Positions 4,201 to 61,258 of a stretch of DNA of 64,000 nucleotides are shown here, in pieces. The notes below the pieces were generated by a model that ran no database searches, was not told the DNA's origin, and saw only the letters and a list, made by a program, of their open reading frames with translations. The stretch comes from Escherichia coli (GTDB taxonomy: Bacteria; Pseudomonadota; Gammaproteobacteria; Enterobacterales; Enterobacteriaceae). The stretch's first letter is position 1; each line of letters begins with the position of its first letter. The position numbers were made by a program, and so were the translations under genes. Location: NCBI RefSeq assembly GCF_003334765.1, contig NZ_QOWT01000002.1; one strand, given 5' to 3'.

Positions 4201-5882
4201 GCCTCGTCCCTCCATGGTAGTCGTAACGTTATTCGGGTGTAACTATCAGGCTCACAGGCGACGCTTATCCCATAGTCATCGCCAAACCGTTCACGTAAAC
4301 GCTTATCCACCAGATTCATCCCCAGCCCACTGGCATTGGTTACCGGTTGATACAAACCGGCATTGTCTTCGATCTCCAGCATTAAATGTTGCCCCTCACG
4401 TCGGGCGCTGATTGCCACTCGCCCTGTATCCAGCAGTTGTGATGTCCCATGTTTAATGGCGTTTTCCACTATCGGTTGCAGGGTAAACGCGGGCAATTGC
4501 TGCTGGGATAATTCTTGCGGAATAGCAATGTTGACCTGCAACCGCGACTGGAAGCGCGCCTTTTCAATTTGCAGATAAGCATTCACATGTTCAATTTCGT
4601 CGGCGAGAGTAACAAACTCCGAAGGCCGCTTTAAGTTTTTGCGGAAAAAAGTGGAAAGATACTGCACCAGCTGGCTGGCCTGTTCGCTGTCGCGACGGAT
4701 CACCGCTTTAATGGTGTTAAGCGCATTAAACAAAAAATGGGGATTCACCTGGGCGTGAAGCAGTTTGATCTCTGACTGGGTGAGCATCGCTTTTTGCCGC
4801 TCATATTGCCCGGCAAGGATCTGCGCCGAAAGCAGTTGCGCAATCCCCTCGCCCAGCGTGCGGTTGATTGAACTGAATAAACGGTTTTTGGCTTCATACA
4901 ATTTGATGGTGCCCATCACCCGCTGATTTTCACCACGCAACGGAATTACCAGCGTCGACCCCAGTTTGCATTGCGGATGCAAAGAGCAACGGTAAGGTAC
5001 TTCGTTGCCATCAGCGTAGACCACTTCACCGGTTTCAATCGCTTTTAAGGTATAAGTCGAAGAAATCGGTTTGCCGGGTAAATGGTGGTCGTCACCAATT
5101 CCGGTAAAGGCTAGCAATTTCTCTCGATCGGTAATCGCGACTGCACCAATATCCAGCTCCTGATACAGCACCTGTGCCACTTTCATGCTGTTCACTTCGT
5201 TAAACCCCTGGCGCAAAATGCCTTCCGTCGAGGCCGCCACTTTCAGCGCAGTGGCAGAAAAAGCTGAAGTGTATTTTTCAAACATCGCGCGTTTATCGAG
5301 CAATATACGCATAAACAGCGCCGCGCCGACGGTATTGGTGACCATCATTGGCGCAGCAATATTACTCACCAGACGTACCGCATCTTCATAAGGTCGGGCG
5401 ATCGCCAGGATGATCAACATTTGCACCATTTCAGCGACGAACGTGACGGCACCGGCGGTAATGGGGTTAAAGACTTTATCAGTGCGCCCGCGACGGATCA
5501 GGATGCTGTGTACCAGGCCGCCGAGCAATCCTTCAACGATGGTTGAGATCATGCAACTTAGCGCGGTCATGCCCCCCATCGAATATCGATGTAAGCCGCC
5601 GGTCAGACCAACCAGCCCACCGACGACCGGACCGCCGAGTAAGCCGCCCATTACCGCGCCTATCGCACGGGTATTGGCAATAGAATCGTCAATGTGCAAC
5701 CCAAACCAGGTGCCCATGATGCAGAAGATGGAAAAGACGATGTAGCAGAGAAATTTATGCGGCAGACGAACCGTGACCTGCATTAACGGTATGAATAATG
5801 GCGTTTTACTCATTAACCACGCAATGACTAAAAAAACGCACATCTGCTGAAGCAGCAGCAACACCAGATTAAAATCGTACAT
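4197..5882 (-). CDS. btsS: LytS-type sensor histidine kinase BtsS (YehU)
   Basis: N-terminal multi-TM domain, GAF and His-kinase regions; start at MYDFNLV. Confidence 0.9.
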
Positions 5883-6103: not shown

Positions 6104-6835
6104 ATGGCGCTTTACACAATTGGTGAAGTGGCGTTGCTTTGTGATATTAATCCTGTCACGTTACGCGCGTGGCAGAGGCGTTACGGATTGCTGAAACCGC
6201 AACGGACAGACGGCGGTCATCGGCTGTTCAACGATGCCGATATTGACCGGATCCGCGAGATCAAACGCTGGATCGACAACGGCGTGCAGGTCAGCAAAGT
6301 TAAAATGCTGCTCAGTAATGAAAATGTTGATGTGCAGAACGGCTGGCGCGATCAGCAAGAAACATTACTGACTTACCTGCAAAGCGGCAATCTACATAGC
6401 CTGCGAACGTGGATCAAAGAGCGCGGTCAGGATTACCCCGCCCAGACACTCACCACACATCTGTTTATTCCTCTGCGCCGACGGCTTCAGTGCCAACAAC
6501 CGACTCTCCAGGCGCTGCTGGCGATCCTCGACGGCGTACTGATCAACTACATCGCCATTTGTCTGGCTTCGGCACGTAAAAAACAGGGTAAAGATGCGCT
6601 GGTGGTTGGCTGGAATATTCAGGATACCACCCGTCTGTGGCTGGAGGGCTGGATTGCCAGTCAACAAGGATGGCGCATTGATGTCCTCGCCCACTCGCTC
6701 AATCAACTACGCCCTGAACTATTCGAAGGCCGTACATTGCTGGTGTGGTGCGGTGAAAATCGAACCTCCGCCCAACAGCAGCAACTCACCAGTTGGCAAG
6801 AACAAGGCCATGATATTTTCCCACTCGGCATTTAA
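6104..6835 (+). CDS. mlrA: MerR-family transcriptional regulator MlrA
   Basis: 243 aa ORF with N-terminal MerR HTH; recognised sequence. Confidence 0.9.
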   Translation: MALYTIGEVALLCDINPVTLRAWQRRYGLLKPQRTDGGHRLFNDADIDRIREIKRWIDNGVQVSKVKMLLSNENVDVQNGWRDQQETLLTYLQSGNLHSLRTWIKERGQDYPAQTLTTHLFIPLRRRLQCQQPTLQALLAILDGVLINYIAICLASARKKQGKDALVVGWNIQDTTRLWLEGWIASQQGWRIDVLAHSLNQLRPELFEGRTLLVWCGENRTSAQQQQLTSWQEQGHDIFPLGI

Positions 6836-6894
6836 TGATTCGTTAACAAATGCGCTTTACTGTACAATCCTTTCGTTAACATAAGGAGTGCATT

Positions 6895-7002
6895 ATGCGC
6901 ATAGCTAAAATTGGGGTCATCGCCCTGTTCCTGTTTATGGCGTTAGGCGGAATTGGTGGCGTCATGCTCGCAGGTTATACCTTTATTTTGCGTGCTGGCT
7001 AA
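6895..7002 (+). CDS. yohO: Small membrane protein YohO (35 aa)
   Basis: Not in ORF track; read by eye. AAGGAG 7 nt upstream of ATG; single hydrophobic helix; 3-prime end overlaps yehW antisense. Confidence 0.7.
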
Positions 7003-7714
7003 GCGCCTGCACCAGCCTTTCAAACAGGCGGTCTGCGATGATCGCCGCCAGTGCCACCAGTAACGCCCCCTGGATCACATACGCGGTATTAAATCCGCTA
7101 AGCCCGATGATGATGGGCGTACCCAGCGTGCTGGCCCCTACCGTTGAGGCGATCGTCGCCGTACCAATGTTGATAATCACCGAAGTTCGCACGCCCGCCA
7201 GAATCACCGGAGCCGCCAGCGGTAGCTCGACCTTACGCAGTCGCTGACCACGACTCATTCCCATACCTTTCGCAACTTCTGTCACGCTGGCATCAATCGC
7301 TCCCAGCCCGGCAAGTGTCGCCTGCAGGACGGGCAGCACACCGTAAAGGATCAAGGCGATAATCGCTGGTTGCAGACCAAAGCCGATCACCGGAACGGCG
7401 ATCGCCAGCACTGCGACGGGCGGAAAAGTCTGTCCAACGGCGGCAATAGTTTCCACCAGTGGGCGAAATTCCGCGCCCCACGGGCGAGTGACAGCAATTC
7501 CGGCACCAGTGCCAATGATCACCGCAAACAAACTCGAAATTCCCACCAGCCAGAAATGAGCCAGTGCCAGAGCTGCAAAACTTTCTTGCTGATAAACGGG
7601 TCGTGGCAGTTGTGGGAACAAGGCAGCAAACAGCGGCTGGCTGTAAGGCAGCCAGAAAATCAGCGCCACAAACAGAGCAATGAGCCAGAACAGCGGATCG
7701 CGCAACATCTTCAT
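6983..7714 (-). CDS. yehW: Osmoprotectant ABC transporter permease YehW
   Basis: 243 aa polytopic permease ORF in yehZYXW order. Confidence 0.9.
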
Positions 7715-16149: not shown

Positions 16150-16322
16150 GATGAGCATTCAGATAGTGGTTCACGCGCACGGGTTGCGCACCGCCGGAGT
16201 AAGGATTTACTGAGGCTAGCGACGCCATCATAACGAGCAAAAAGTGCGATCGTCAAAGGAGAATCGTGAGGAAATGCTGCATTGCTGACATTTACGCCAG
16301 CAATGCAACGTCAAAGAACTTT

Positions 16323-18601: not shown

Positions 18602-20038
18602 TCAGCGTTTGTAACCCCCGCCCAACGCACCAGTGAGTTGAATGGAGGCATCCAGCCACTGCCCTTGCAATAACAGGCCATTGGCCCGCTCACGCAGCGC
18701 GGGGATTCTGGCTTCGCTGACGCGGGAACCAGCAATGATGCCCGCGTTAAAGCGCGCCTGCGCAAGACCTACCACACGCAAGGCATCGCGCTCAATTTGC
18801 GCCTGATGCTGGTTTTTCTCCGCCAGTGTCTGAACCTGACTGGCTGCCCGCGCCACGTCATTCACCGCTTCAACCACCGCTTTGTTGTAGCTGGCGATAG
18901 ACAAGTTGCTTTCGGCTTTTGCGATATCGAGATTGGCGTTAAGACGACCACTATCGAAAATGGGTAGCGTCAGGCCTGCCGTAACGCCCATTTGCTGCGC
19001 GGAATGACGGAACAGATCGCTTAAGTGCAACGCATCCTGTTGCAGGAAGGCCATCAGGTTGATGTCAGGATAAAATGCCGCTTTTGCCGCATCAATGGTG
19101 CTTAGCGATGACTCAACGTACCAGTGCGCCGCCTGCAAATCTGCCCGCCGGGCCAGTAAGGAGTACCCCAGTTCATCAGGAAGCTGGCTTGCCACTTTCG
19201 GCAACGCGACCGGTTTAAGCTTCAATGACTTTGTCTGGTTATTTGTAAGTGCGCTTAACCGTGCCTCAATAATTTTCATTTTCCCCGCGACATCGTTGAG
19301 CTGCTGCCGGGTTTTGCTGGCATTAATATCGGTTTCCACACCTTCAACTGAAGAAGTAATCCCGTTCTGATATAGCTGGCGATCGGTCGCGATAATGGTG
19401 TTCTGCTCTTTTTCTATTTGCTGCAAGACCGTGTTTAACGCCGCCTGGGTTTGCCACTCCCAGTACAGGCGGGCTACGCTGCCAGCCAGCAATTGGCGGG
19501 TTTGCTCGCGTTCCGCCGCCCGTGCTTTAACCGTACCCAGGCGGGCAGTAACCTCCGCCCGATTCTTTCCCCAGATATCGAGATGCCAGCCCGCCGTTAA
19601 GCCAAAAGTACCGTTGGTGTACCACGGGCCGGTCGTACCTGCGGCCGGATCGTTCAGAGCAAACGGCCCCATTAAGCCTTCTGCCGACATTTTTTGCCGC
19701 TCCATATCCGCCGAAAAGTCGATCTGCGGACCATCCTGAGTGGCAACTGCCTTCGCCTGGGCTTCAGCTAGCTGAATGCGCTGTTCAGCCACCTGCATAT
19801 CCGGTGCGTTCTGTAGTGCATTGTTAATTAAGGAAGTGAGTTGATTATCGTGATACTCCAGCCACCATTGGCTGTCTGGCCAACCATTTTTCAGCGCCGT
19901 GGGTAATGCGGTGTCAACTTGTGCAGCGGGCGTTTGCTGGCTTAACGCCTGGCGGGTTTCATGCATAGGCGCACACCCGGCCAGCATCAGTAACAGCGGA
20001 AAACAGGCGATGGCTGGATAAAAGGAATCACGATTCAT
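18602..20038 (-). CDS. mdtQ: Outer membrane efflux lipoprotein MdtQ (OMF family), apparently intact here
   Basis: Continuous ORF with signal peptide and lipobox LLMLAGC; start at MNRDSFYP. Confidence 0.8.
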   Translation of the reverse strand: MNRDSFYPAIACFPLLLMLAGCAPMHETRQALSQQTPAAQVDTALPTALKNGWPDSQWWLEYHDNQLTSLINNALQNAPDMQVAEQRIQLAEAQAKAVATQDGPQIDFSADMERQKMSAEGLMGPFALNDPAAGTTGPWYTNGTFGLTAGWHLDIWGKNRAEVTARLGTVKARAAEREQTRQLLAGSVARLYWEWQTQAALNTVLQQIEKEQNTIIATDRQLYQNGITSSVEGVETDINASKTRQQLNDVAGKMKIIEARLSALTNNQTKSLKLKPVALPKVASQLPDELGYSLLARRADLQAAHWYVESSLSTIDAAKAAFYPDINLMAFLQQDALHLSDLFRHSAQQMGVTAGLTLPIFDSGRLNANLDIAKAESNLSIASYNKAVVEAVNDVARAASQVQTLAEKNQHQAQIERDALRVVGLAQARFNAGIIAGSRVSEARIPALRERANGLLLQGQWLDASIQLTGALGGGYKR

Positions 20039-20261
20039 GGGGGAATAATCAGGTAAGAAAAGGTGCGCGGAGATTACCGTGTGTTGCGATATATTTTTTA
20101 GTTTCGCGTGGCAATACATCAGTGGCAATAAAACGACATATCCAGAAAAATATACACTAAGTGAATGATATCTTCCGATTTATCTTAATCGTTTATGGAT
20201 AACGGCAAAGGGCTTCGTTTTTTCCTATACTTATTCAGCACTCACAAATAAAGGAACGCCA

Positions 20262-20345
20262 ATGAAAATTATACTCTGGGCTGTATTGATTATTTTCCTG
20301 ATTGGGCTACTGGTGGTGACTGGCGTATTTAAGATGATATTTTAA
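20262..20345 (+). CDS. yohP: Small membrane protein YohP (27 aa)
   Basis: Not in ORF track; read by eye. AAGGA upstream of ATG; single hydrophobic helix. Confidence 0.65.
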   Translation: MKIILWAVLIIFLIGLLVVTGVFKMIF

Positions 20346-20439
20346 AATTAATTAATGTCATCAGGTCCGAAAATAACGAGAATATTTCAGTCTCTCATCC
20401 TGTTGCGCTCCTGTCATGTGCATTGCTTCATATAATCAC

Positions 20440-20640
20440 TGGCGCAAGGAGCGCGCAGGGGGCGGCCAATCGCCGCCGCCCCCTGCACCCCCGGGCTCTG
20501 GCGAACAAAATCGCCGCTGCGCGGTGCCCTCGACTTATCCCTTACGGCTACCGGGTCGGGCGCGAGGTAACATCCCTGTAAAACGCGCCCTCAGCCCACA
20601 TCCATGTGGGCTGCCCCGGCCTTCAGGGAACGCCTCGGCA
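20440..20640. repeat. GC-rich structured intergenic element with strong hairpins; not a canonical REP
   Basis: 12-bp GC stem near 20455-20486 and palindrome near 20593-20614, in AT-rich flanks between yohP and dusC. Confidence 0.45.
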
Positions 20641-20717
20641 ATTTTGACGCCACCAAACAACCGTGCGGCCTATTGATAAAGAGCTAACACATTGTCAAAA
20701 AACATCACTATGGTTTT

Positions 20718-21665
20718 TTAGAGTTTCTCGATATCAATTGCCTGAATAGCCCTTGCAATATCAGGGGAATTATTCAACACCCGAACATGCTGAAATAATT
20801 CCGTTGCTTCATCGTATTCTTTACGCAAATAACTCAACCACTGTTTAATCCGCGCAACGTGATATAACCCGGTATCGCCCTGCTTTTCCAGACGGGTATA
20901 TTTTTGCAGCAAAGCAACCACCTCCGGCCACGGCATTCGCGGTTCGTTATATTTTACCACCCGGCTCAGGTTGGGAATATTGAGCGCCCCGCGACCAATC
21001 ATCACTGCGTCGCAGCCGCTGATCGCCATGCATTGTTGCGCGCTCTGCCAGTCCCAGATTTCACCGTTGGCAATCACCGGAATATTCAGCCGCTGGCGAA
21101 TATCGCCAATCGCCTGCCAGTCAATATGCTCCGCGCGGTAACCCTGCTCTTTCGTCCGCCCATGCACCACCAGCTCCGTAGCGCCAGCCTGTTGAACCGC
21201 ATCGGCGATTTCAAATTTCTTCTCACCGCTGTCCCAGCCCAGACGCACTTTCACGCTGACGGGCAAATGCGCCGGTACAGCTTCACGCATCGCTTTTGCA
21301 CCCTGGTAGATGAGTTCAGGATCTTTGAGTAACGTCGCCCCGCCGCCGCTACCGTTAACCGTTTTCGACGGGCAGCCGCAATTGAGATCCACGCCCCAGG
21401 AACCTAACTCCACCGCACGGGCGGCGTTCTCTGCCAGCCATTGTGGGAACTGACCTAACAACTGCACGCGCACCAGCGTACCAGATGGTGTCCGGCTGGC
21501 GTTTTGTAGCTCAGGGCAAATGCGATGAAAGACTTTTACCGGCAGCAGTTGATCCACCACGCGGACAAACTCGGTGATGCACAGATCGTAGTCGTTAACT
21601 TCGGTCAGCAATTCACGCACCAGAGAGTCAAGCACTCCCTCCATCGGTGCCAGTAACACACGCAT
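20718..21665 (-). CDS. dusC: tRNA-dihydrouridine synthase C
   Basis: Dus-family TIM-barrel sequence; start at [11 protein letters not shown]. Confidence 0.9.
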
Positions 21666-27789: not shown

Positions 27790-27975
27790 CGCATCCGGCA
27801 TTTGGTTCCTGTCGCCGGATGCGGCTTGAACGCCTTATCCGGCCTACAAAACCATACAAATCAGTATGTTGAGCTTATTGTAGGCCGGATAAAACGCGCC
27901 AGCGTTGCATCCGGCATTTGGCTCCTGTTGCCGGATGCGGCGTGAACGCCTTATCCGGCCTACAAAACCACACAG
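27790..27975. repeat. BIME: cluster of REP copies
   Basis: Two near-identical direct REP units (GCCGGATGCGGC..CGCCTTATCCGGCCTAC) and an inverted partial copy between preA and mglC. Confidence 0.85.
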
Positions 27976-28022
27976 ATCATGATGTTATGTGCGTTTATGA
28001 CCGAATGCGGACCACATTCACA

Positions 28023-32948: not shown

Positions 32949-33089
32949 ATTCACTACCTGTTATGAGATTGCAGTAAATGACTGCTTGCTGGCGGCTATT
33001 TTGTCAGCACTGAATACAGGACTTCGTGAATCGAGTCACAGCAATGGAAACGGTTACAGCCGTTTTGTTAACGAATGTGATCCAGATCG

Positions 33090-34247
33090 TTATCTTGATG
33101 TTTTAGATATTGCCGGTCCGGCAGCACGCAAAGTTAACTGACGCCAGAGCCATTCCACCGGCCCCTGGCGGAAGTAACGCAGCCAGATAACAGAGAAGAG
33201 GATATTCGCCAGCCATACCGGAATAACAAACGCCAGCAGCTCCAGGCGGTCAAAATGCATAAACAAACCGAGGTGGTAAAAAAGCGTGGTACAAATCAGC
33301 GTTTGCAATAGATAGTTGGTCAGCGCCATCCGTCCGACGCAGGCGATCGCAAGCACCAGCTTAAAGCGGCTCAATTGCGGCCAGAAGCCATAAAACAGCG
33401 ACGCATAGCCAATCGCCTGAAACGGCGCACTCAGTTCCCGCGGCATTTGAAGTAAGAAGGCACACCAGCGATACGCCCAGTCCAGCTGCCATTGCAGGGC
33501 GATGGCAGGAAGGTTAATGGTCACCCCAATCGCCACCAGCACAAAACCAGTACGACGATAGTGACGTAAGCTGAACTGCCCTTTCAGCCAGCCGCTGCGC
33601 ATCAGCGCCGCACCAATGAGCATCATCCCTGCCAGTTGCCAGCCATACTGTGCGCCCAGTGCCAGTAAACTGTTGCCAACACCATCGGCACGATAACTGA
33701 TCGCTTCAACGCCGCCGTGAAGCTTCCAGTATTTTTCATACAAAATAGCCGATGCATCCGGCGTCCAGGCGCGGCTGGTCTGGCTGTCGGAAATCAGCCC
33801 CAATAACAGCAAAACGCCAAGCCCCACCAGATAAAGCATGACGCCTGTATTAAACAGGCTTTTTACCGATGGCGCATCGCGCACCAGCCGCCAGCAGATT
33901 AAGCCCACCAGCCCGTAAGCCAGCAAAATATCGCCGTCCCAGAACAATAAACCGTGAATAAAGCCCAACAAGACTAACAGCGTTAACCGCGACTGGATCC
34001 AGCGTCTGCCACGGGGCAGCAACATTTGCAGGCCCGCACCAAACAGTAGCGCAAAAAGCGTGAGGAATTTCACCTGGCCGATGAGATCAAGAAATGCCCA
34101 AGTCCATGCATCCCGCGGCGTAATAGCACCGTACCAGGCGGGATTGAGATAAGCCGCCTTTGGTAGCCCAAAGGCGCTGATGTTTAATAGCAGGATCCCC
34201 AGAATGGCGACGCCGCGAACAAAATCGAGCGTGACGTTGCGCTCCAT
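33090..34247 (-). CDS. yeiB: DUF418 inner membrane protein YeiB
   Basis: 385 aa polytopic membrane ORF. Confidence 0.8.
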   Translation of the reverse strand: MERNVTLDFVRGVAILGILLLNISAFGLPKAAYLNPAWYGAITPRDAWTWAFLDLIGQVKFLTLFALLFGAGLQMLLPRGRRWIQSRLTLLVLLGFIHGLLFWDGDILLAYGLVGLICWRLVRDAPSVKSLFNTGVMLYLVGLGVLLLLGLISDSQTSRAWTPDASAILYEKYWKLHGGVEAISYRADGVGNSLLALGAQYGWQLAGMMLIGAALMRSGWLKGQFSLRHYRRTGFVLVAIGVTINLPAIALQWQLDWAYRWCAFLLQMPRELSAPFQAIGYASLFYGFWPQLSRFKLVLAIACVGRMALTNYLLQTLICTTLFYHLGLFMHFDRLELLAFVIPVWLANILFSVIWLRYFRQGPVEWLWRQLTLRAAGPAISKTSR

Positions 34248-50576: not shown

Positions 50577-50814
50577 AGCACGTCCTCTGGTAAAAAATTA
50601 CCAACCCTGTCAATCCACAAGAATATAGATACTGCAAAGACGGTTTAAACATGTGTTCATATTTAAACATGTGCTCATAGTATGCATGTTTTACGTAAAG
50701 TAAATTACCGCCAGAGAGGCAAAATGGGCAGATTTGAGCAGGCTCACAAAATGCGATTAAATGCCTGAATTACAAAAGCGAGGAATTTGTGACGGGATGC
50801 ACAGAACAGAACAA

Positions 50815-50843
50815 TAAAAAAGGGCAGAAAATAATCTGCCCTT
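50815..50843 (-). terminator. Intrinsic terminator, probable end of fruBKA transcript
   Basis: AGGGCAG / CTGCCCT stem with 8-nt loop followed by a U-run on the minus strand, about 155 nt past fruA stop. Confidence 0.55.
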
Positions 50844-50998
50844 GAGGAAATAACCTGAGTGTTTGATGAACGTTTGAAGTTTCTACTGAAAGATAAAACC
50901 ATTTAAATTCATAAAATTACATTCACAAACCGGTCATTCTCTTTGCGCTCATCAAATGTTACAGGACAGGAAATTTCTGCCCTGTAACACACCTTTTA

Positions 50999-60847: not shown

Positions 60848-61258
60848 CTCACAGTAATTAACATCATCAGGGTTATTTTTATAGTGAGGATAATCCTGAT
60901 GATGCGCACCGTGCTTTCATCTATCGAACGCAAAAATCATTCTCTAAGTAAATGAATGGATTGCATGCGTTTCACTCAATTGTACTTTAATTGACCAACC
61001 CCACTTATTAACTTTCTGTATCACTTTTTCTTATAAAAAATCATGTAAAACCGCTCGCCAAGACCGCACCAATCGGGTAATCTCGAACTCGTTTTGCCTC
61101 GGCGGTAGATTATCCTCACAGCATATAATTTTGTGCGTTAGTCCACAGATTTGGCCTTAAGGAATTGTTTCAACATGCCCAGGTAATTAGTCTCGTGTCG
61201 CTTGGCATTTTTTTATAACGATATTTGTCGTTAAGGACTTCAAGGGAAAACAAACAAC

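Follow-up and report, generated by a model that had tools for sequence, protein, structure and literature searches.

Two very short hydrophobic reading frames, one of 35 codons and one of 27, raise the question of whether such frames are genes at all and, if they are, what their products would do for Escherichia coli. Both lie in the window (the whole stretch of E. coli DNA that was analysed, 64,000 nucleotides), where the first-pass annotation, made from the letters alone, had read them as yohO and yohP, genes for tiny membrane proteins that fall below the length cut-off of its ORF track. The features discussed below are collected in Table 1.

Table 1. Positions of the yohO and yohP features and of neighbouring elements in the window
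Feature	Position	Strand	Description
yohO CDS	6895..7002	+	35 codons, ATG to TAA, one transmembrane (TM) helix; ORF list and RefSeq
yohO Shine-Dalgarno, AAGGAG	6883..6888	+	6 nt 5' of ATG; anti-SD duplex -8.8 kcal/mol
Probable yohO -10 element, TACAAT	6863..6868	+	TATAAT in most other genera; inferred from conserved columns in the mlrA-yohO spacer alignment
GTTAAC/ATTAAC boxes	6842-6847 and 6875-6880	+	33 nt apart, either side of the yohO -10; conserved in a 54-sequence alignment
yehW	6983..7714	-	last gene of the osmF-yehY-yehX-yehW glycine betaine ABC transporter operon, convergent to yohO; RefSeq
yohO/yehW CDS overlap	6983..7002		20 nt, tail-to-tail; yehW stop within YohO codons F30-I31
pbpG leader	16154-16295	-	Rfam Peptidase-S11 RNA motif at 16154-16234
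12-codon ORF (rejected)	16253-16291	-	part of a covarying hairpin
mdtQ	18602-20038	-	intact, 478 codons
yohP -10 element, CTATACT	20225..20231	+	sigma-S type, C at -13; predicted leader ~23 nt
yohP Shine-Dalgarno, AAGGA	20251..20255	+	6 nt 5' of ATG; anti-SD duplex -5.6 kcal/mol
yohP CDS	20262..20345	+	27 codons, ATG to TAA, one TM helix; ORF list and RefSeq
Promoter-like site antisense into yohP (rejected)	20361 to 20334	-	ATGACA, 16-nt spacer, TATCAT; 10/12 matches
yohP-dusC spacer	20346-20717		~200-nt GC-rich stretch; hairpin at about 20455-20490
preA-mglC spacer	27791-27986		Rfam naRNA4 at 27883-27960 (-); suggested second copy at 27791-27870
galS-yeiB ORF	33026-33106	+	26 codons, GTG start
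psuK-fruA ORFs	50724-50906	+	three ORFs of 14-18 codons
mepS upstream ORF	60899-60955	+	18 codons

yohO and yohP are catalogued E. coli genes

We found both frames in the ORF list, at the lengths and positions that the first-pass annotation had given, with ATG starts and, for yohP, the product MKIILWAVLIIFLIGLLVVTGVFKMIF. The products are identical to YohO (b4542) and YohP (b4679) of E. coli K-12, which bears out the claimed match to known small membrane proteins. The annotation was taken from the E. coli ML35 record NZ_CP025747.1 (3171433-3235432), which differs from the window at 11 positions and has no indels; hence, it transfers one to one. RefSeq has "protein YohO" (yohO) and "small membrane protein YohP" (yohP) at exactly these coordinates. 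YohO scored 80.1 bits against the NCBIfam equivalog NF010225 (cut-off 57, E = 8.8e-23, residues 1-35 on profile 1-35), and YohP scored 67.3 bits against NF011345 (cut-off 58, E = 7.7e-19, residues 1-27 on profile 1-27).

The correspondence with the K-12 genes includes their surroundings. In the window as in K-12, the gene for YohO (UPF0387; Pfam PF27791, UPF0387_membrane) encodes the same 35 aa, lies between mlrA and yehW and overlaps yehW by 20 nt. YohP, which is STnc1330 in Salmonella, has the same 27-aa sequence, the same position between mdtQ and dusC and a sigma-S-type -10 element. The difference lies in flanking mdtQ, which is intact in the window, in ML35 and in BL21(DE3) but is an annotated pseudogene in K-12 MG1655, whereas yohP itself is the same gene.

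We found the yohO segment in 5424 of 5426 complete E. coli genomes and the segment with yohP in 5422 (5417 with at least 80% of it covered). Two of 5426 yohO-segment matches in this collection are to records labelled plasmid, not chromosome; these records may have been misassigned, or a plasmid may carry the chromosomal segment. We found no evidence against the gene identity of yohO or yohP. It is nearly certain that they are the known E. coli genes b4542 and b4679, free-standing units of 27-35 codons, each with its own promoter and Shine-Dalgarno (SD) sequence and one TM helix. Both already stand in the curated K-12 annotation and in the NCBI automatic annotation; as an observation on this DNA, they are correct but ordinary.

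Sequence cues and selection on the reading frames

The signals on which the two genes had been called proved sound. The SD sequence is good in each case, and its AGGAG core is at least 95% conserved for yohO (54 distinct upstream sequences aligned), while an AGGA or GGAG motif occupies the yohP position in most genera of the cross-genus alignment. The single predicted TM helix was recovered in each protein, with peak 15-residue Kyte-Doolittle hydropathy of 2.60 for YohO and 3.27 for YohP.

How much such cues can prove is limited by how often they arise in shuffled DNA. Scanning both strands of the 48 intergenic regions of the window (about 7 kb; 6.7-7.2 kb) yielded 223 start-stop combinations that were 12 or more codons long, and only yohO and yohP combined an SD duplex of -5 kcal/mol or lower with hydropathy of at least 2.0. 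When the same intergenic DNA was shuffled 300 times with dinucleotides preserved, a mean of 0.39 ORFs passed, and 9% of the shuffles gave two or more. Hence, the SD, start and hydrophobicity cues are real but unconvincing alone, with a false-positive rate of about 0.4 per 7 kb of intergenic DNA, and the shuffles lend something to the view that the two ORFs are chance frames in AT-rich intergenic DNA and not genes.

That view was weighed against the conservation of the frames. We anchored 80 Enterobacteriaceae loci on dld, with flanks of up to 10 kb; YohO was detected by tblastn in 55 of these loci, YohP in 37. Selection was expressed as pooled Nei-Gojobori dN/dS; since the sequence pairs are phylogenetically non-independent, the contrast between frames is the meaningful control. 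For yohO, dN/dS was 0.126 in the annotated frame (pS 0.53, pN 0.11) against 1.6 and 2.6 in the other frames, and for yohP it was 0.020 (pS 0.65, pN 0.03) against 0.61 and 4.6. The third codon position carries most of the variation in both genes, the variable columns at the first, second and third positions numbering 18, 11 and 30 in yohO and 10, 1 and 24 in yohP.

The start codons are conserved as well. All 56 yohO copies (55 loci and the window) begin with ATG, as do 33 of the 38 yohP copies (37 loci and the window), and the other five have an in-frame ATG one codon upstream. TTG starts for these five were rejected because that ATG precedes each of them; hence, the five YohP proteins probably have 28 aa. 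Internal starts at 6937 and 20286 were rejected too, their SD motifs being poor and their conservation merely reflecting that of the full-length frames.

Frame-specific purifying selection over dozens of species, together with conserved start codons, SD motifs and promoters, leaves practically no room for chance frames, and the published detection of YohO and YohP protein had already refuted them. Judged by evolutionary conservation together with the published experiments, the gene status of yohO and yohP is settled. Codon-level conservation across species thus cleanly parts true from false small ORFs.

No further small gene found in the intergenic DNA

A length cut-off on an ORF track conceals real genes, and the first-pass annotation had supposed from yohO and yohP that more genes of fewer than 50 codons may go unrecognised here, proposing a systematic intergenic search for SD, start and hydrophobic short ORFs. 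The scan of the 48 regions was that search, and it does not support the supposition: in the 64 kb, no other intergenic ORF has a usable SD sequence and a hydrophobic helix. No other small intergenic ORF is conserved as a frame across genera in the 3.4-25 kb part of the window covered by the cross-genus loci, and the curated K-12 annotation of the homologous 64 kb has no other gene below 50 codons.

A 12-codon ORF on the minus strand, apparently conserved in 36 loci, was rejected. Citrobacter and Salmonella have AAG in place of its ATG, and the stretch forms a covarying hairpin; hence, it is not a gene. The hairpin, TGCATTGCTGGC / GCCAGCAATGCA (TGCGTTGCTG / CAGCAACGCA in Citrobacter), belongs to the pbpG leader, where it lies directly after yohC and, on the RNA, just upstream of the Peptidase-S11 motif (72.8 bits; gathering 34.8), and a conserved TATGAT box follows it.

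The nearest miss in the scan, between galS and yeiB, is a hydrophobic GTG ORF with a weak SD sequence (-4.0 kcal/mol). Three hydrophilic ORFs with strong SD motifs lie in the 422-nt psuK-fruA spacer, and one with an SD of -6.4 kcal/mol lies in the long region upstream of mepS. All these small ORFs are compatible with chance. The preA-mglC spacer holds naRNA4, a nucleoid-associated ncRNA derived from REP elements (88.3 bits), and cross-matches between the window and BL21(DE3) suggest a second naRNA4 copy of ~80 nt, 91% identical, beside it.

A probable sigma-S-type promoter of yohP and the described role of YohP in stress

About 30 nt 5' of the yohP ATG, CCTATACTT (variants CTACACT and CTAAGCT) is conserved across genera. 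The C at -13 of this -10 element agrees with the RpoS dependence seen in Salmonella, where production of tagged YohP depends on RpoS and on growth phase and where its transcript had originally been listed as the sRNA STnc1330 (PMC5437024). Chromosomal YohP-SPA is more abundant late than early in stationary phase, and it also rises in minimal medium and when oxygen is limiting (PMC12719787).

YohP is an integral inner-membrane protein, mostly N-out/C-in, whose SDS-resistant dimers depend on Gly15. SRP and FtsY insert it post-translationally via SecYEG or YidC, and its mRNA is found at the membrane (PMC7549839; PMC12648545). Producing YohP reduces membrane potential and fluidity, increases cardiolipin, and induces the stringent and phage-shock responses, nucleoid condensation and reduced metabolism (PMC12719787; PMC12542507). 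The depolarisation is sublethal, and deleting yohP lowers survival under stress (PMC12719787). We found residues 10-27 of YohP invariant in the 37 loci, and K2, G15 and K24 are all present here.

In the published picture, YohP is made from a sigma-S-type promoter in stationary phase or under nutrient or oxygen limitation and reaches the inner membrane post-translationally, through SRP with SecYEG or YidC or by targeting of its mRNA. There it dimerises via Gly15 and lowers the membrane potential sublethally; the drop in potential sets off the phage-shock and stringent responses, condenses the nucleoid and leaves the cell metabolically silent.

Such a peptide might instead be the toxin of a type I toxin-antitoxin pair, restrained by a cis-encoded antisense RNA. 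YohP shares with TisB, DinQ, Ldr and Ibs a short hydrophobic helix, a depolarising effect and nucleoid condensation (PMC12719787, PMC12648545, PMC12542507), and a promoter-like site on the minus strand points antisense into yohP (Table 1). This site is at chance level, however (one found against 1.3 +/- 1.1 in shuffles), and its -35 part lies in the 3' flank of yohP, which is unconserved even within Escherichia and which in most genera is occupied by a GC-rich hairpin directly past the stop; we rejected it as an antisense promoter. An antisense RNA with a conserved promoter is what marks a type I pair, and at yohP we found neither an Rfam sRNA family nor a conserved promoter. Unlike those toxins, YohP also acts sublethally, and its loss reduces stress survival (PMC12719787). 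A type I toxin is therefore a very unlikely description of YohP.

The distribution of yohP is patchier than its sequence. Either dusC or mdtQ or both flank it in 27 of the 37 loci that have it, and it is absent from the mdtQ-dusC spacer in 15 loci with both flanks, including E. albertii and several Citrobacter (loci L007, L013, L014, L016, L017, L023-L025, L036, L037, L040, L047, L054, L056 and L060). Hence, yohP is probably dispensable, though strongly constrained where present.

The E. coli sequence 3' of yohP differs from the hairpin of most genera and is variable, and two Escherichia lineages (L009 and L011) have a different sequence directly past the yohP stop. The GC-rich stretch in the yohP-dusC spacer includes a perfect 11-bp hairpin, CAGGGGGCGGC ... 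GCCGCCCCCTG. A 1.1-kb query (19800-20900) around it gave a median of 4 matches per E. coli genome and was at least 80% covered in 3302 of 5426 genomes; the window itself has no second copy of the spacer element. This variable spacer may hold a dispersed repeat.

YohO and its probable promoter

The mlrA-yohO spacer is 59 nt long and contains the conserved columns of the probable -10 element. Distant yohO homologues in unrelated upstream contexts have a TATAAT box 25-35 nt 5' of the start. Hence, yohO has its own promoter and is not simply the tail of mlrA. Scans with consensus promoters and terminators gave nothing above chance at yohO or yohP, and the conserved -10 elements are seen in the alignments only. 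In Citrobacter, the GTTAAC/ATTAAC boxes on either side of the yohO -10 are both retained although 8 nt between them are deleted, and as a pair they could be an operator.

The YohO orthologs are 34-37 aa long and share the core GG(I)GGVMLAGY, with invariant columns G19, G22, V23, M24, L25, G27 and Y28. The AlphaFold2 model of YohO is one helix (residues 3-34, mean pLDDT 89.8), on which the conserved glycine-rich face suits helix-helix packing. A Pfam-A profile search with YohO gave no significant match; the precomputed Pfam assignment PF27791 is on all the YohO homologues that we looked up. The family is very small: a search of 1.84 billion cluster representatives at E <= 1e-3 yielded 37, of which several are frameshifted fragments, and all its members are Enterobacterales-like.

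YohO has been detected by top-down mass spectrometry (PMC12529367), and its Ribo-seq signal is in the correct frame (bioRxiv 10.1101/2020.05.05.079178). The latter source calls YohO membrane-bound, citing Hemm et al. 2008. We found no functional study of YohO in the literature searched, and the PDB has no entry with YohO and none for YehYXW, the closest solved relative of YehW being a distant OpuA permease.

The yohO-yehW junction is conserved

The first-pass annotation had put the antisense overlap of yohO with the 3' end of yehW at about 20 nt, and it is exactly that. In all 54 dld-anchored loci with both genes, yehW is convergent to yohO and overlaps it. Overlaps of 26 nt (29 loci) and 20 nt (21 loci) are commonest, with 23 nt and 17 nt in two loci each, and the yehW stop always falls inside YohO codons F30-I31. 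Seven of these 54 loci have no mlrA match upstream.

For divergent yohO homologues, the context was obtained by exact-sequence look-up. The operon yehW-yehX-yehY-osmF lies downstream with a 20-nt overlap where the upstream neighbour is mlrA or a TonB-dependent receptor, with an 11-nt gap where it is a DinG-like helicase, and with a 0-nt gap where it is an EamA transporter and YohO is a 59-aa variant; YehW in the distant loci is about 64-67% identical to that of E. coli. Two further contexts lack the operon and hence the yehW junction: a 74-aa ORF upstream with bglX directly downstream, and a DinG-like helicase upstream with NUDIX and then bglX downstream.

Two loci, L091 and L094, keep an intact yohO (5001-5108 in both) with its TATAAT box, and osmF-yehYXW is missing between yohO and bglX. 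Comparison with L100, where the upstream helicase is the same and the operon follows, suggests that yohO stayed in place while the whole operon was gained or lost next to it. The dld-anchored loci had suggested that without yehW there is no yohO; this was rejected, since the distant homologues keep yohO without the operon. Two lineages do so, and hence a neighbouring YehW cannot be a strict requirement for YohO.

Altogether, yohO lies tail-to-tail with the operon in five upstream contexts, mostly with an overlap. That the yehW junction was kept through at least four changes of the gene upstream argues for a functional tie, be it a partnership of YohO with the permease, mutual antisense control or both, while shared ancestry in a tiny, Enterobacterales-like family explains part of the linkage. 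From genome comparison, the yohO-yehW linkage is a lead for function, not a demonstration of it. The literature searched holds no YohO-YehW interaction, phenotype or regulatory link.

Protein or RNA?

An excludon consists of overlapping convergent units, and yohO and yehW overlap at the CDS level by 20 nt here and by 17-26 nt in the 54 loci. The pair is among the convergent excludons that ExcludonFinder lists for E. coli from RNA-seq coverage (PMC12288877). Within 6600-7300, we found no intrinsic-terminator-like site downstream of the yohO or the yehW stop, the sole such site being inside the yohO CDS. Hence, the yohO and yehW transcripts must overlap further.

On this ground, yohO might work mainly at the RNA level, as an excludon with yehW: transcription running from the yohO promoter into yehW and from the yeh operon into yohO would act through mutual antisense interference and RNase III processing, with the peptide secondary. 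The conserved overlap, the lack of terminator-like sites past either stop and the ExcludonFinder entry all speak for this. Purifying selection, however, runs over the whole yohO frame, including the 75-88 nt beyond the overlap (dN/dS 0.126 against more than 1.5), the core of YohO is invariant, and the protein is seen by mass spectrometry and Ribo-seq. Moreover, yohO stays intact where the operon is absent, and in two distant relatives the genes do not overlap at all but abut or stand 11 nt apart. We consider a mainly RNA-level role improbable.

What YohO might do

Small membrane proteins that act on transporters offer analogies for both peptides. KdpF (partner KdpABC), AcrZ (AcrB) and MgtS (MgtA), the last two named in PMC12719787, are, like YohO and YohP, single TM helices of fewer than 50 aa without catalytic potential; the analogy is functional only, as they have no sequence similarity to YohO or YohP. 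KdpF shares a transcript with its partner; yohO, by contrast, converges on yehW. For YohO, the likeness extends to a conserved genomic association with a transporter operon.

By this analogy, YohO would most likely bind a larger membrane protein. The YehW/YehY permease of the glycine betaine ABC transporter OsmF-YehYXW would be the best candidate for such a partner, since the tail-to-tail pairing of yohO with yehW persists across otherwise unrelated neighbourhoods. The forced overlap of the 3' ends of the two mRNAs would probably add mutual antisense interference. We put forward tentatively, as a possibility that conserved gene order raises, that YohO is a dedicated partner of OsmF-YehYXW: its glycine-zipper helix may dock on YehW/YehY, or the yohO transcript and protein together may set the level of the transporter by way of the conserved tail-to-tail overlap.

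YohO may instead belong elsewhere, as a general membrane-stress protein or with an unlinked partner, its place beside yehW being inherited synteny. The AcrZ and MgtS genes are not adjacent to those of their partners. Two lineages have yohO and lack the operon, and in a family restricted to so narrow a clade, synteny would be expected to last. Against this, the gene upstream has changed at least four times with the yehW junction kept within a few nt, which exceeds what passive synteny predicts. Independence of the transporter seems to us to have close to an even chance of being right.

Implications

YohP now ranks among the better-studied bacterial small membrane proteins. YohO is a core protein of E. 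coli that is under purifying selection and has been detected, and its function is so far a matter of inference. If it is a partner of OsmF-YehYXW, an orphan small protein would gain a function and the transporter an accessory or regulatory component, and the conserved yohO-yehW junction makes this a concrete hypothesis that can be tested cheaply.
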